64,000 nucleotides of DNA from an uncultured bacterium (GTDB lineage: Bacteria > Patescibacteriota > Minisyncoccia > Phycocordibacterales > GWA1-40-21), in contig CAWCTC010000001.1 of assembly GCA_963798465.1 (NCBI GenBank), forward strand, positions 464,465 through 528,464, in the 5' to 3' direction. The translations under genes were made by a program, and so were the position numbers. The first letter of the stretch is position 1, and every line of letters begins with the position of its first letter. The notes under the pieces are model-generated. The model had not been told where the DNA came from. It saw nothing but the letters and a program-made list of their open reading frames with translations, and searched no databases. Below, in pieces: positions 6,860 through 57,009 of this stretch.

Positions 6860-6896
6860 TTAATGGGCGGCCACGAAGTGGCCGCCCATTAATTTT
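6860..6896. terminator. bidirectional terminator between convergent hpf and fmt
   Basis: TTAATGGGCGGCCAC-gaa-GTGGCCGCCCATTAA, a 15-bp perfect stem flanked by A/T runs. Confidence 0.85.
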
Positions 6897-8231: not shown

Positions 8232-8266
8232 AAATAAAAAACGCCCTGCAACAAATGCAGGGCGTC
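8232..8266 (-). terminator. intrinsic terminator of ORF 8313-8684
   Basis: ACGCCCTGCA-acaaa-TGCAGGGCGT, a 10-bp stem followed by a T-run on the minus strand. Confidence 0.8.
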
Positions 8267-13541: not shown

Positions 13542-13574
13542 AAAAGGCGGGTTCGCGAAACGAACCCGCCTTTT
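13542..13574. terminator. bidirectional terminator
   Basis: AAAAGGCGGGTTCG-cgaaa-CGAACCCGCCTTTT. Confidence 0.85.
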
Positions 13575-17599: not shown

Positions 17600-17848
17600 A
17601 TGTACCACCTATACATCCTTCGTTGTTCTGACAAAAGCTTATACACCGGCATAACAACCGATTTGAAGCGACGTCTCAAAGAGCATAATGAATCAAAACT
17701 TGGGGCGAAATATACGTCGGCGAGACGACCGGTGAAGCTCGTGTATTCAAAAAAGTTTAAGAATAGAAGTTGTGCGTCCTCGGAAGAGGCGAGGGTGAAA
17801 GCATTGACGAAAATTCAAAAAGAAAAATTAATTAGTAAGAAAAAGTAA
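17600..17848 (+). CDS. GIY-YIG nuclease superfamily protein (UPF0213/YhbQ-like)
   Basis: MYHLYILRCSDKSLYTGITTDLKRRLKEHN... Confidence 0.85.
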   Translation: MYHLYILRCSDKSLYTGITTDLKRRLKEHNESKLGAKYTSARRPVKLVYSKKFKNRSCASSEEARVKALTKIQKEKLISKKK

Positions 17849-17853
17849 AGATG

Positions 17854-17980
17854 GCGCCGCGGTTGACTTAGCGAAGTCACGTCGTACCACAGGAGTACTT
17901 CTTGTTTACTAAATCGCTGAGTACAGCTCATAAGTAAACAAAGTCGCACGACCGTCCTATAAGTGCGACACAGGCGGCGC
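17854..17980. ncRNA. GC-rich multi-hairpin element (unassigned) immediately after the GIY-YIG gene
   Basis: Closing stem GCGCCGC/GCGGCGC. Inner hairpins: TGACTT-agcg-AAGTCA, GTAC-cacagga-GTAC, TTGTTTACT...AGTAAACAA (itself containing GCTG-agta-CAGC), and GTCGCAC-13 nt-GTGCGAC. Confidence 0.4.
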
Positions 17981-18063
17981 ACCTGCTATCACATTAATTA
18001 TTATTAATAGTGCGCCTTTATTGATATAATCTACGTAGTAAATATAAGTTATAAAACAAAAAT

Positions 18064-18924
18064 ATGTTGAGTTTTTTAGTGCTACATTTTAAAGATATTA
18101 TAGATGTGCTCTTGGCTACATTTTTTATTTATGTAGTTATACTTTTCTTACAGCAAACAAAATCCCGATTTATAATTGGAACTTTCATAGTCGTTATTTT
18201 TTCATATTTTATATCAAAATTTTTTAATTTAGAACTTTCTCAAGATATTCTCCAGCCACTCATAACACTTCTTGCTGTGATTTTTGTTATTGTCTTTCAA
18301 AATGACATCAGACGATTCTTCCACTGGATATCCTCTCCCAAAAATTTAATTAAAACAAATGATAATAATGAGAAAATTTCTGAACAAATTGTCAGTGCCG
18401 TATCGGAAATGGCAAAGAATAAAGTTGGAGCCCTGATTGTTTTTCCTGGAAAAAGTCCGATTGATGATATCGTGCAAGGTGGATTTTTGCTTGACGGAAA
18501 AATTTCTACTCAAGTTATTTTGAGTATTTTTGATACAAATACACCAGGTCACGATGGTGCAATGCTTATAGAAAATTTCCGCATAAATAAATTTGGATTA
18601 CATTTACCGCTTGCCGAAAATTTCAAGAATTTTTCTCGTATGGGAACAAGACATCGCGCTGGCATAGGTATTACAGAACAAACTGATGCTCTTGCCATCA
18701 TTGTTTCAGAAGAAAGAGGGGAAATCTCTATAGCAAAAAATGGGGAAATTAAAAAAGTAGAAGATTTAGAAAAACTTTTATCAGTTATAAAAAAATATAC
18801 GCACGAGAATGCAGATAATGAAAATAATAAAAGTCTCTGGAATTTTATTGTTGTAAGTAATTTTAATACCAAATTTATAGCATTCACCATTGCAATAATA
18901 CTCAAAATATTATTGATAAAATAA
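18064..18924 (+). CDS. cdaA: diadenylate cyclase (CdaA-type, membrane anchored)
   Basis: Three N-terminal TM segments. The DAC domain carries GALIVF, HDGAMLI and GTRHRAGIGITEQTDALAIIVSEERGEISI. Confidence 0.9.
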   Translation: MLSFLVLHFKDIIDVLLATFFIYVVILFLQQTKSRFIIGTFIVVIFSYFISKFFNLELSQDILQPLITLLAVIFVIVFQNDIRRFFHWISSPKNLIKTNDNNEKISEQIVSAVSEMAKNKVGALIVFPGKSPIDDIVQGGFLLDGKISTQVILSIFDTNTPGHDGAMLIENFRINKFGLHLPLAENFKNFSRMGTRHRAGIGITEQTDALAIIVSEERGEISIAKNGEIKKVEDLEKLLSVIKKYTHENADNENNKSLWNFIVVSNFNTKFIAFTIAIILKILLIK

Positions 18925-19142: not shown

Positions 19143-19168
19143 GCGCCGCGGACTACCGCGGCGCTTTT
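19143..19168 (+). terminator. intrinsic terminator (GCGCCGCGG-acta-CCGCGGCGC + TTTT)
   Basis: 9-bp GC stem, tetraloop, T-run. Confidence 0.8.
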
Positions 19169-19382
19169 CAAATGCATTAAATTTGCTATATTCAGAATAT
19201 GAAAATCACAATCGTAAAAAATAAATATCTGAACGCACTATTTATAGCGAGTGCGAAGTGAGGGAGCCGCGGTAATCCGCGGCTCTATGTCGCATATGAA
19301 TTGAAATAAAGATCAAAAAATTGATTTGACTTTTTCAATTATTTCAATATACTTTCACAATCTAACTATTATTAATAATATT

Positions 19383-35211: not shown

Positions 35212-35244
35212 AAAAAGACCCGCTTACTGCGGGTCTTTTTGTTT
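35212..35244 (+). terminator. intrinsic terminator (GACCCGC-ttact-GCGGGTC + T5)
   Basis: 7-bp GC stem and T-run. Confidence 0.8.
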
Positions 35245-54546: not shown

Positions 54547-55926
54547 ATGGCAACAGAAATCAGAAAAATAAATATAAGAATTCCTCCGCAAAATATTGAA
54601 TCGGAAAGAGCACTTTTGGGTTCCATAATGCTCCGTCCAGAAACTCTAGCTGAAATCATGGACATACTTCGCCCTGAAGCTTTTTATGCCGACAAGCATA
54701 AAACTATTTTTGAGGCGATGACTCATTTGTATGAAAGAAGAGAGCCAATAGACTTGCTGACTCTTTCTTCCAAACTGAAAGAATCCGTCGATCTGGATAG
54801 AATCGGCGGAATGAGTTATCTCACTGAAATGGTAAACTCGGTTCCCTCTTCCTCAAATGCAGAACATTATGCCGAAATAATTTCCAAAAAATATACCATG
54901 CGCAGACTTATAGAAGCTGCTGAAGGTATTGTAAAAATAGGTTATGATGAAGAAAGTCAAATTGAAGAACTTTTAGATAAAGCTGAGAAAAAACTTTATG
55001 AGGTGACAAGCAAAAATCTTTCTGGAAAATATGTAGAAATGAAAGATGTTTTGGGCGAGGCAATGGAAAGACTCGACAGACTTCACAAAACTAAAGGCGA
55101 ACTTCGCGGAGTGCCGACGGGTTTCAAAGATTTGGACAACAAGCTTTCCGGTTTCCAAAATTCAGATTTAATTATTTTGGCCGCTCGACCTTCCATGGGA
55201 AAAACTTCTCTAGCTTTGGATATCGCGAGAAATGCTTCAATCCGCCACAATATTCCGACTGCAATTTTTTCTCTTGAAATGAGCACTCAACAGCTCGTCG
55301 ACAGAATGCTTTCTGCCGAATCAAAAGTTGATGCATGGAGATTGAGAACAGGAAAACTTTCTTTGGAATCAGAATTCGAACAGATCAGAGCATCGCTTGA
55401 TCCACTTTCAAAAGCGCCTCTTTATATCGACGATCAGGCTGCAAATAATATTTTAAAAATCCGTTCAGTCGTCCGAAGATTGAAACACGAAAAAAATCTC
55501 GGATTGGTAATCATCGATTATTTGCAGCTTATGACACCAGTCAATACAAAAGGTGGAGACAATGTCGTCCAGCAAATTACGGAAATTTCCCACTCTTTAA
55601 AACAGCTTGCAAAAGAATTCGACATTCCAGTCCTCGCGCTTTCACAACTTTCAAGAGCTGTTGAACAGCGAGGCGGCAAGCCAAGACTTTCCGATTTGAG
55701 AGATTCAGGTTCCATCGAACAGGATGCAGATGTAGTGATTTTTATACACAGAGATGCAAACGACGAAGGCGGTGGTAAAAAACAAACGGCAGAAATAATG
55801 ATTGAAAAGCACAGAAACGGTCCGACGGGCAAAGTCGAATTATTCTTTGATGCCGACAAATCATCTTTCCTTTCCGTAGACAACTCGGCTCAATTCGGCG
55901 ATTTTAACCAGACAGGAACATTTTAG
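54547..55926 (+). CDS. dnaB: replicative DNA helicase
   Basis: PPQNIESERALLGS, ILAARPSMGKTSLAL, IDYLQLM, SQLSRAVEQR. Confidence 0.93.
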   Translation: MATEIRKINIRIPPQNIESERALLGSIMLRPETLAEIMDILRPEAFYADKHKTIFEAMTHLYERREPIDLLTLSSKLKESVDLDRIGGMSYLTEMVNSVPSSSNAEHYAEIISKKYTMRRLIEAAEGIVKIGYDEESQIEELLDKAEKKLYEVTSKNLSGKYVEMKDVLGEAMERLDRLHKTKGELRGVPTGFKDLDNKLSGFQNSDLIILAARPSMGKTSLALDIARNASIRHNIPTAIFSLEMSTQQLVDRMLSAESKVDAWRLRTGKLSLESEFEQIRASLDPLSKAPLYIDDQAANNILKIRSVVRRLKHEKNLGLVIIDYLQLMTPVNTKGGDNVVQQITEISHSLKQLAKEFDIPVLALSQLSRAVEQRGGKPRLSDLRDSGSIEQDADVVIFIHRDANDEGGGKKQTAEIMIEKHRNGPTGKVELFFDADKSSFLSVDNSAQFGDFNQTGTF

Positions 55927-55948
55927 CTTTAACAAATATACGAATTGC

Positions 55949-56314
55949 ATTGTCATTCCCGCGGAGGCGGGAATCCATTCTTCTGAATTAATTTATGAGT
56001 AAAAATTATTACGTTTATATTTTAGCAAGCGGAAGGAACGGAACATTATATATAGGAGTTACAAATAATTTATTACGGAGAATATATGAACATAAGAATG
56101 GTTTGATTGACGGTTTTACAAAAAAGTATAATGTTAAGATGTTGGTATATTTTGAATCAACCGAAGATATAGCAAGTGCGATAGCGAGAGAAAAAGCTTT
56201 GAAAAAATGGAATAGAAGTTGGAAGATAAGTCTGATACAAAGTGTGAATCCAGAGTGGAACGATTTGAGTTTAGAATTATAAGAATGGATTCCCGCCTCC
56301 GCGGGAATGACAAT
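55949..56314. mobile_element. GIY-YIG gene bracketed by perfect 34-bp inverted repeats (putative selfish cassette)
   Basis: ATTGTCATTCCCGCGGAGGCGGGAATCCATTCTT at 55949-55982 is the exact reverse complement of 56281-56314. Each arm also contains the hairpin TTCCCGC-ggag-GCGGGAA. Confidence 0.7.
55995..56282 (+). CDS. GIY-YIG nuclease superfamily protein (UPF0213-like)
   Basis: YYVYILASGRNGTLYIGVTNNLLRRIYEHKNG...AREKALKKWNRSWK. Confidence 0.88.
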   Translation: MSKNYYVYILASGRNGTLYIGVTNNLLRRIYEHKNGLIDGFTKKYNVKMLVYFESTEDIASAIAREKALKKWNRSWKISLIQSVNPEWNDLSLEL

Positions 56315-56324
56315 ACCACCGCTG

Positions 56325-56381
56325 TGTCATCCTCGCGAATGCGGGGATCCAGAAATTAAAAGAATTAACATAGGGATGACA
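56325..56381. repeat. second, ORF-less palindromic unit (TGTCATCC...GGATGACA)
   Basis: TGTCATCCTCGCGAATGCGGGGATCCAG...TAGGGATGACA. The terminal octamers are reverse complements. Inner hairpin CCTCGC-gaat-GCGGGG. Confidence 0.6.
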
Positions 56382-56391
56382 ATACAAAAAG

Positions 56392-57009
56392 ATGAACAGC
56401 ATAGATAAACTTATAAAAATATTTTCTGAATTTCCAGGCATCGGACCGAAGCAAGCCAGAAGGTTTGTTTATTTTTTAATAAATCGAAACGAAAATTATA
56501 TCGATGAATTAAAAAAAGAGATTACAGAACTAAGAAAAAATGTCGTTTCTTGCGCAGATTGCAAAAGATTTTTTTTGGCAAAACGCGACGACCAAGTTCT
56601 TTGTTCAATTTGTTCTGACAAAAATCGCGATAATAGCATTCTTATGATTGCCAGCAGAGACATCGATTTAGAAAATATTGAAAAGGGACATTCTTACAAT
56701 GGAAAATATTTTGTACTTGGCGGGCTTGTTCCAATTCTTGATAAGAATCCTGAACAAAGAATTCGTTTGAAAGAACTTTTGGCACTTGTCAGTAGGATGT
56801 CAGATAAAGGCTTGAAAGAAATTATTCTTGGACTTGATGCGAATTCTGAGGCTGAATACACTGGAAATATTTTAAAATCTTCTCTATCTCCAATCACAAC
56901 AAAATACTCTATAAAAATATCTGAACTTGGTCGAGGACTTTCAACAGGAACCGAGCTTGAATATTCTGATCCAGAAACAATTAAAAATGCGCTGAAAAAT
57001 AGAAGCTAA
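56392..57009 (+). CDS. recR: recombination protein RecR
   Basis: FPGIGPKQARRFVYFL, a C4 zinc finger (CADCKRF...CSICSD), and a Toprim region. Confidence 0.92.
   Translation: MNSIDKLIKIFSEFPGIGPKQARRFVYFLINRNENYIDELKKEITELRKNVVSCADCKRFFLAKRDDQVLCSICSDKNRDNSILMIASRDIDLENIEKGHSYNGKYFVLGGLVPILDKNPEQRIRLKELLALVSRMSDKGLKEIILGLDANSEAEYTGNILKSSLSPITTKYSIKISELGRGLSTGTELEYSDPETIKNALKNRS

Follow-up and report, generated by a model that had tools for sequence, protein, structure and literature searches.

An Ssn-family nuclease gene framed by hairpins

The DNA analysed here is a 64-kb window, the whole stretch of 64,000 nucleotides taken from contig CAWCTC010000001.1 of a Paceibacterota (candidate phyla radiation) genome. 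Between its dnaB and recR genes lies a short gene that we predict to encode a site-specific single-stranded DNA (ssDNA) endonuclease of the Ssn family, flanked by the enzyme's own recognition hairpins; we put the probability of this reading at roughly 85%. The anatomy of the locus, the membership of the family by sequence, the conservation of the catalytic residues, the predicted fold and the conservation of the layout in homologues were observed directly. As the arrangement and the likely mechanism were published in 2025, the locus is another example of a known system. It adds a member from the candidate phyla radiation to the Ssn family, which has potential as a tool. To our knowledge, Ssn enzymes are the only site-specific nucleases that exclusively cut ssDNA.

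The Ssn family was defined by Chenal et al. (Nat Commun 2025; PMC11893778) and consists of single-domain GIY-YIG proteins of approximately 94 amino acids (CDD cd10448). SsnA of Neisseria meningitidis (94 amino acids) binds the 28-nt NTS hairpin, CGTCATTCCCGCGMAVGCGGGAATCYRG, as ssDNA only and in one orientation. The NTS contains the old dRS3 repeat ATTCCC-N8-GGGAAT, and its critical flanks are GTC upstream and C downstream (PMC11893778). Cleavage occurs a few nt upstream of the NTS, double-stranded DNA (dsDNA) is not cut, and cleavage is lost in the Y6A, Y17A and E64A mutants (PMC11893778). Four Ssn homologues cut their own motifs, and an Ssn-related motif (SRM) is present on both sides of the gene in 42% of homologues (PMC11893778). 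In N. meningitidis, Ssn restricts incoming ssDNA that bears the hairpin, and the family has been linked to natural transformation (PMC11893778).

Examination of the window revealed exactly two copies of the 34-mer ATTGTCATTCCCGCGGAGGCGGGAATCCATTCTT, at 55949-55982 (+) and 56281-56314 (-), each with 0 mismatches; no match was found in 100 dinucleotide-preserving shuffles of the window (0/100). The first-pass annotation had described a GIY-YIG gene inside a perfect 34-bp inverted repeat, and this anatomy was confirmed throughout. The left arm lies 12 nt upstream of the start codon (ATG at 55995), the right arm begins inside the stop codon, from the second base of TAA (56280-56282), and the Pfam domains of the two neighbouring genes place the unit between dnaB and recR. 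The features of the unit are as follows.

55949..55982, + strand: left arm, SRM-A(+), exact match, with its GTCAT 'head' directed away from the gene
55951-55978, + strand: NTS-equivalent 28-mer of the left arm, TGTCATTCCCGCGGAGGCGGGAATCCAT, with the palindrome at 55955-55974
55995..56282, + strand: ssn gene, 95-amino-acid single-domain GIY-YIG nuclease of the Ssn family, predicted catalytic residues Y8, Y19 and E66
56281..56314, - strand: right arm, SRM-A(-), exact reverse complement of the left arm, with the NTS-equivalent at 56285-56312 (-), its head directed away from the gene, overlapping the last two bases of the stop codon

Each arm also folds on itself, as the first-pass annotation had proposed. 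The palindrome ATTCCCGC-GGAG-GCGGGAAT is computed to form, as ssDNA, a hairpin with an 8-bp stem and a 4-nt loop, and folding energies in 50-nt contexts were -9.9 kcal/mol for the left arm and -9.1 kcal/mol for the right arm (z about -2.7). Set against the Neisseria NTS consensus, the arms agree at 25 of 28 positions (3 substitutions) and keep both the upstream GTC and the downstream C. SRM/NTS hairpins are found in both the 5' and the 3' flank of the gene. Homology supports the suggested recognition of these hairpins by the protein, SsnA being known to bind and cut the near-identical NTS as ssDNA (PMC11893778), and such recognition would extend to the window protein. In homologues, compensatory stem variants (ATCCCCGCG/CGCGGGGAT and TTCCCAC/GTGGGAA) keep the pairing, consistent with the hairpin as the recognised form.

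The arms might instead be ordinary intrinsic terminators, one for dnaB and one for the small gene, with an identity that is incidental or the result of a local duplication. A consensus scan did find a terminator-like signature in each arm (a stem of 8 bp, then 5 T within 8 nt), and the left arm directly follows dnaB as the right arm directly follows the gene. The T-rich tail is, however, peculiar to the window; homologues have CCAGTATAAT after the stem. There is no minus-strand gene upstream for the minus-strand arm to terminate, nothing similar occurs 3' of any other gene in the 64 kb, and the 24-nt core with its asymmetric flanks is identical across more than 10 phyla, where it tracks one protein family. 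We consider terminators very unlikely as the explanation, and rejected the terminator-only reading on account of the unconserved tail and of a core that does not vary between phyla. In a search of Rfam the arms gave sub-threshold matches to FtrB, a Francisella small RNA (RF02748), at 55929-55996 (+) and 56272-56330 (-), with 25.5 and 28 bits against a gathering threshold of 66. As these matches are only sub-threshold, no curated RNA family accounts for the arms; the matches suggest that the FtrB model includes an NTS-like hairpin.

The encoded protein is a homologue of SsnA

The open reading frame (ORF) at 55995..56282 matches the Pfam GIY-YIG domain (PF01541) over residues 4-78 with an E-value of 2.5e-17 and contains no extra domain. 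A tblastn search of a 7.3-Gb database aligned it to a 94-amino-acid ORF of Neisseria gonorrhoeae at 57% identity and 99% coverage (E 9e-29). This gonococcal ORF (MQPAVYILASQRNGTLYIGVT...) contains Y6, Y17 and E64 and has nine exact NTS copies within the 3.3 kb around it. Because it is the single 94-amino-acid match with Y6/Y17/E64 and is set among NTS copies, we regard it as the SsnA orthologue. The published criterion for homology within the family is E < 1e-10 to Neisseria SsnA (PMC11893778), and the match between the window protein and the gonococcal orthologue falls well within it.

The counterparts of Y6, Y17 and E64 of the 94-amino-acid homologues are Y8, Y19 and E66 in the window protein, and these three residues are invariant in alignments of 56 NTS-framed and 45 database homologues. 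The same alignments show R29, H33 and a C-terminal K-K-W-x-R-x-W-K signature (K70-K71-W72, R74, W76-K77) to be invariant or nearly so. An AlphaFold2 model (pLDDT 93.4) consists of one compact GIY-YIG domain, closest in fold, among solved structures, to the UPF0213 proteins and Slx1; no Ssn structure was found in the PDB, either by sequence or by fold.

The first-pass annotation had called the protein UPF0213-type, an assignment that does not hold. The UPF0213 structure 1ywl, of Enterococcus faecalis EF2693 (1zg2 being that of Bacillus halodurans BH0048), was matched only at E 2.7e-4. The window protein, a poor match to UPF0213, is 51-75% identical to NTS-framed homologues from more than 10 phyla. 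A second GIY-YIG gene of the window (17600..17848, 82 amino acids) matches 1ywl at E 2.5e-16 and has no flanking hairpins. From these comparisons, the genuine UPF0213 gene of the window is 17600..17848, and 55995..56282 probably belongs to the Ssn (cd10448) clade. The spacer 3' of the 17600 gene (~17850-17990), before an ORF at 18064..18924, is GC-rich and looks structured, and has no match in Rfam.

A free-standing GIY-YIG homing endonuclease, similar to the phage Seg proteins, would cut the empty dnaB-recR allele as dsDNA and be copied into it by repair. It would share with the window gene the GIY-YIG domain, the intergenic site between conserved genes and the presence or absence of the gene among relatives. 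NCBIfam holds no model for the Ssn family, and the sole match of the window protein there was to a group I intron endonuclease, at an E-value of 0.0029; as this lies far below the cut-off, the identity was rejected. Several features argue against homing: the protein has only 95 amino acids and no DNA-binding domain, characterised Ssn members do not cut dsDNA (PMC11893778), and their target is the hairpins on either side of the gene, not an unoccupied site. Matches in an annotated phage collection were weak, its GIY-YIG genes reaching only 36-37% identity. We consider homing very unlikely.

Some observations weigh against an Ssn nuclease gene flanked by its own sites. The arms miss the literal published SRM pattern at one position, loop base 2, which is G, not H. 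The protein comparison used the N. gonorrhoeae orthologue as a stand-in for N. meningitidis SsnA, and the NTS copies nearest to gonococcal ssnA point inward, opposite to those of the window cassette. Neisseria genomes carry hundreds of NTS copies, with a genome-wide role. The 64 kb contain three and a half copies of the motif, all at the gene itself, and a genome-wide role as in Neisseria is not evident from the 64 kb. No further copies of these hairpins were found elsewhere in the 64-kb window, which contains one ssn gene.

The same layout is present in other genomes

Homologues identified by protein identity share the layout of the window. Some 12-16 nt separate the end of the plus-strand motif from the ATG, a TATAAT often coming after the motif, and the stop codon has a minus-strand motif close behind it. 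The genomic contexts are unrelated: dus/clpB-like genes (L001), pieces of a comEC-like gene (L003), a type IV secretion-like operon (L210), moaC and MOSC in Melioribacteraceae (L215), and sufB and sufC in Azospirillum (L222). On a Planktothrix plasmid (L221) the ssn gene is located by restriction and DISARM genes.

To survey the layout more widely, genomes (one per species) were scanned for two outward-facing NTS cores 296-326 bp apart. The scan returned at least 120 loci from more than 10 phyla, with the same 24-nt hairpin core. Among the 120 matches listed, a homologue of the window protein is encoded between the cores in 66 (E < 1e-10), and in 55 of these the ORF is full length, with 51-75% identity. 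An ssn gene or a remnant of one was detected by tblastn in 87 of the 120 listed; the remaining 33 are denser in NTS, with 5.2 copies per 8 kb versus 2.9. The Neisseria viridiae locus (L145) is an NTS pair without a gene. One of five cassette matches in IMG/VR encloses an ssn gene. Two complete 2.17-Mb N. gonorrhoeae chromosomes, NZ_CP119140.1 (L209) and NZ_CP119142.1, are filed as plasmids in the plasmid collection, and it was in this collection that the gonococcal SsnA orthologue came to light.

Between sufB and sufC, Azospirillum lipoferum 4B has a unit of approximately 560 bp (L222, 1370-1986) made up of ssn and four motifs, with a plus/minus SRM pair on each side. The corresponding flanks in A. 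ramasamyi, A. oryzae and Azospirillum sp. B510 (L223, L224 and L225) are ~96% identical but enclose no such unit.

Locus L003 (1390-4345) has its cassette flanked on one side by an ORF carrying DUF4131 and Competence domains and on the other by one carrying Lactamase_B. Taken together, the two ORFs supply the three domains of ComEC, so the cassette may interrupt comEC; in view of the published link of the family to natural transformation, the position is a curious one. In the Taylorbacteria loci L210-L214 (~700-2300), an intact ssn gene is accompanied by a second GIY-YIG fragment and several SRM pairs, in a type IV secretion-like operon (PrgI, TraC-like, TraG P-loop).

Additional hairpins on the recR side

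Downstream of the right arm we identified a diverged third hairpin and a truncated fourth copy, both beyond what the first-pass annotation described. They and the genes that bound the junction are listed below.

54547..55926, + strand: dnaB, Pfam DnaB_C (E 8e-100), left boundary of the variable junction
56317..56372, no strand: 56-bp segment carrying SRM-B, absent from the relatives L008 and L009
56325..56352, + strand: third hairpin, SRM-B(+), TGTCATCCTCGCGAATGCGGGGATCCAG, with the stem ATCCTCGC/GCGGGGAT
56373..56385, - strand: tip of an older fourth SRM, truncated, immediately before recR
56392..57009, + strand: recR, Pfam RecR_HhH and RecR_C, right boundary of the variable junction

The published SRM pattern is matched exactly at one place in the window, SRM-B, against a mean of 0.05 matches in shuffled windows. 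The stem of SRM-B contains a T.G pair on the plus strand only; on the minus strand the pair would be a C.A mismatch, and so one strand should form the more stable hairpin, in keeping with strand-specific recognition. The 56-bp segment is bracketed by 13-nt direct repeats, GGAATGACAATAC (56304-56316) and GGGATGACAATAC (56373-56385), and blastn alignments to L008 and L009 extend from dnaB through the cassette to 56316 and pick up again at 56373. A full minus-strand SRM ending ...GGGAATGACAATACAAA.. is located just before the recR ATG in L008, L009, L016, L017, L020, L043 and L220.

Hairpins of the SRM-B type also adjoin type-A hairpins in L003 and L012, and L220 has a diverged B-like copy. The order found downstream of the window gene, (-)SRM, B(+), (-)SRM, recurs in L003, which is another genomic context, and B(+)/A(-) occurs alone in L012. 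The hairpins thus travel as composite modules.

Perfect GC-rich hairpins with 8-10 bp stems and no relation to SRM are present in the window at 6864-6888, 8241-8265, 13546-13570, 19143-19164, 19264-19285 and 35214-35238. The two near 19.2 kb are alike (GCGCCGCGG.../GAGCCGCGG...).

The dnaB-recR junction is variable and the cassette is old

Junctions lacking the cassette were sought in relatives of the window genome, as the first-pass annotation had advised, and were found in close ones. A metagenome scan with RecR yielded 80 related loci. The dnaB-recR synteny is retained in nearly all of those that extend far enough, and the exceptions mainly begin too near recR. Empty spacers of 1-15 bp are found in L005, L006, L007, L010, L013 and L022. 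The full cassette is present in the same orientation in L008, L009 and L220 and inverted in L016. A lone minus-strand motif remains at a fixed distance from the recR ATG in L011, L017, L020 and L043, and L012 has the hairpin pair B(+)/A(-) at the junction without a gene. On a RecR neighbour-joining tree, a rough one without bootstrap, the junction states are intermingled, with a difference in state within each of four sister pairs. Over evolutionary time the unit is clearly gained and lost, and the repeats neither flank unrelated genes at random nor behave as terminators that lack presence/absence polymorphism.

Other cargo was also present at the junction: unrelated small genes occur there in several relatives, including a 100-amino-acid MazG-like ORF (L004), a gene with a NUDIX Pfam domain (L220) and others (L018, L019); in L021 a Nudix-like ORF was read by eye. 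The spacer between dnaB and recR acts, in the Paceibacterota relatives, as a hotspot of insertion and deletion for small genes that have nothing to do with ssn. The closest relative is L004, whose homology to the window breaks off precisely with the stop codon of dnaB (99.2% over 129 nt) and starts again 4 nt before the recR ATG (88.4% over 968 nt). The difference between the dnaB side and the recR side suggests a recombination mosaic.

It had been proposed that the perfect repeats indicate recent mobility, and the comparison with relatives does not bear this out. Nucleotide identity of the cassette is 77% to L008, 81% to L009 and 75% to L016. The corresponding values are 77%, 78% and 78% for the 3' end of dnaB and 80%, 79% and 74% for recR, so that the cassette (75-81%) and its flanking genes (74-80%) have diverged alike. 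The alignment with L008 and L009 passes from dnaB into and across the cassette without a break. Because the divergence of the cassette equals that of its flanks, with collinearity, the insertion is old, and a recent insertion was rejected on the comparisons with L008, L009 and L016. Judged from these identities, the cassette has long been resident between dnaB and recR in this lineage.

Both arms share a derived CCAT flank, and the GGAG loop is common to both arms and L220 (other relatives have GTAG or GCAG). These shared changes point to concerted evolution of the arms or to joint selection. The arms are thus probably kept identical by selection or by gene conversion/concerted evolution, not by recent insertion. 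Perfect terminal repeats persist here on an old insertion, and so are not by themselves evidence of recent movement.

Proposed mechanism and the question of mobility

We propose that the locus, or incoming DNA bearing the motif, becomes single-stranded during replication, DNA uptake or repair. The ATTCCCGC-N4-GCGGGAAT palindrome would then fold into a hairpin, which the 95-amino-acid GIY-YIG protein would bind, reading the sequence together with the asymmetric flanks (GTC 5' and C 3' of the palindrome). The strand would be cut approximately 3 nt upstream of the motif by means of Y8, Y19 and E66 with Mg2+. Binding and cleavage of ssDNA by the window protein are predicted by analogy with the published work on four homologues. 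The geometry of the cut is that of N. meningitidis SsnA on 37-nt and 28-nt substrates, from which homologues vary by ~1 nt, and it gives the following sites.

55947..55948, + strand: predicted Ssn cut on the top strand, 3 nt 5' of the NTS-equivalent, from the geometry of N. meningitidis SsnA
56315..56316, - strand: predicted Ssn cut on the bottom strand, from the same geometry, adjoining the start of the 56-bp segment

As the GTCAT ends of both arms face outward, the predicted cuts fall just outside the cassette, one per strand. The predicted cuts between 55947 and 55948 (+) and between 56315 and 56316 (-) are 1-2 nt outside the edges of the inverted repeat. Candidate roles would be restriction of hairpin-bearing incoming ssDNA, as in N. 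meningitidis, or self-propagation of the cassette.

The second of these roles leads to a different account of the locus, in which the unit is an autonomous mobile element: a minimal transposon, an ssDNA-dependent counterpart of IS200/IS605 or REP/RAYT units, with terminal hairpins processed by its own GIY-YIG nuclease and perfect arms that reflect recent transposition. The 'NTS-ssnA-NTS' architecture was explicitly discussed by the authors who defined the family, who remarked on its likeness to an insertion sequence and raised, and left open, the question of whether NTS-ssn-NTS units are, or were, mobile (PMC11893778). The layout of the window cassette is likewise insertion-sequence-like. Presence and absence, inversion, lone hairpins and gene-less pairs are interleaved on the host tree at dnaB-recR. 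One Azospirillum species has the unit and three with ~96% identical flanks do not, and homologues are found inside unrelated operons (sufB-sufC, moaC-MOSC, type IV secretion-like) as well as between comEC-like pieces. Also in favour of a mobile element are the occurrence of one and the same 24-nt hairpin core around ssn genes of more than 10 phyla and the position of the predicted cuts, 1-2 nt beyond the edges of the inverted repeat.

Other observations argue against a transposon. The divergence of the cassette equals that of its flanks and its collinearity with L008 and L009 is continuous, marking this copy as old. Target-site duplications were searched for at both polymorphic junctions (dnaB-recR and sufB-sufC) and none was visible, nor was a clean empty/filled junction; comparison of filled and empty junctions in Paceibacterota and Azospirillum showed spacer sequence that was replaced, not interrupted. 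The unrelated small genes (MazG-like, Nudix-like and others) at the same junction may mark a general recombination hotspot. There is a single copy of the gene in the 64 kb, and the outward-facing arms leave one cleavable type-A site per strand. We know of no strand-transfer activity for GIY-YIG enzymes. For Ssn, cleavage alone has been reported; the enzymes are known to cut, not to join (PMC11893778). Taking both sides together, we regard an autonomous, recently transposed element as unlikely. The first-pass description of a minimal selfish cassette is retained in part: the hairpin-nuclease-hairpin layout is non-random and behaves like an insertion, while the transposon stays hypothetical, with no target-site duplication visible and one copy in 64 kb.

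With the locus taken as an Ssn nuclease gene between its own recognition hairpins, one more speculative extension, to which we give somewhat less credence still, is that the Ssn cassette may be an ssDNA-dependent mobile element, the movement of which is started by Ssn cleavage just outside the arms, as a GIY-YIG analogue of REP/RAYT and IS200/IS605. If this were true, gene-less hairpin pairs would be non-autonomous derivatives, and the dnaB-recR series and the sufB-sufC polymorphism would record insertion, inversion, decay to lone hairpins and loss. The natural filled, empty, inverted and decayed alleles at dnaB-recR in Paceibacterota and at sufB-sufC in Azospirillum make the question of mobility testable.

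Comparison with known systems

The UPF0213 proteins EF2693 and BH0048 resemble the window protein as stand-alone GIY-YIG proteins of approximately 95 amino acids and provide its closest solved folds. They differ in lacking both the K-K-W-x-R-x-W-K C-terminal signature and flanking hairpins, and the similarity is marginal (E 2.7e-4). The IS200/IS605 elements are small, have imperfect end hairpins that are recognised on ssDNA, and generate no target-site duplication. In these elements both hairpins are on the same strand, the ends do not form inverted repeats and TnpA belongs to the HUH transposases, whereas the type-A hairpins of the window cassette are on opposite strands.

The REP/RAYT systems ('REPtrons') share with the cassette one small nuclease-type gene between inverted copies of the ssDNA hairpin that is recognised, and in both, gene-less pairs and lone copies are scattered or left behind. 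The enzymes differ, being HUH/Y1 in REP/RAYT and GIY-YIG here; HUH enzymes form covalent intermediates and can rejoin DNA.

The system most relevant to the window is SsnA/NTS of N. meningitidis (PMC11893778). The host of SsnA is a proteobacterium and that of the window gene a Paceibacterota bacterium with a small genome. The window loop is GGAG and the NTS loop GMAV; the window arms point outward and border on the start and stop codons, while the nearest gonococcal copies point inward; and the window motif has not proliferated, with none elsewhere in the 64 kb. The two systems nonetheless have in common a GIY-YIG-only protein of approximately 94 amino acids with the same catalytic Tyr/Tyr/Glu, an ATTCCC...GGGAAT palindrome flanked by GTC on its 5' side and C on its 3' side, and a gene framed by inverted copies of the motif.

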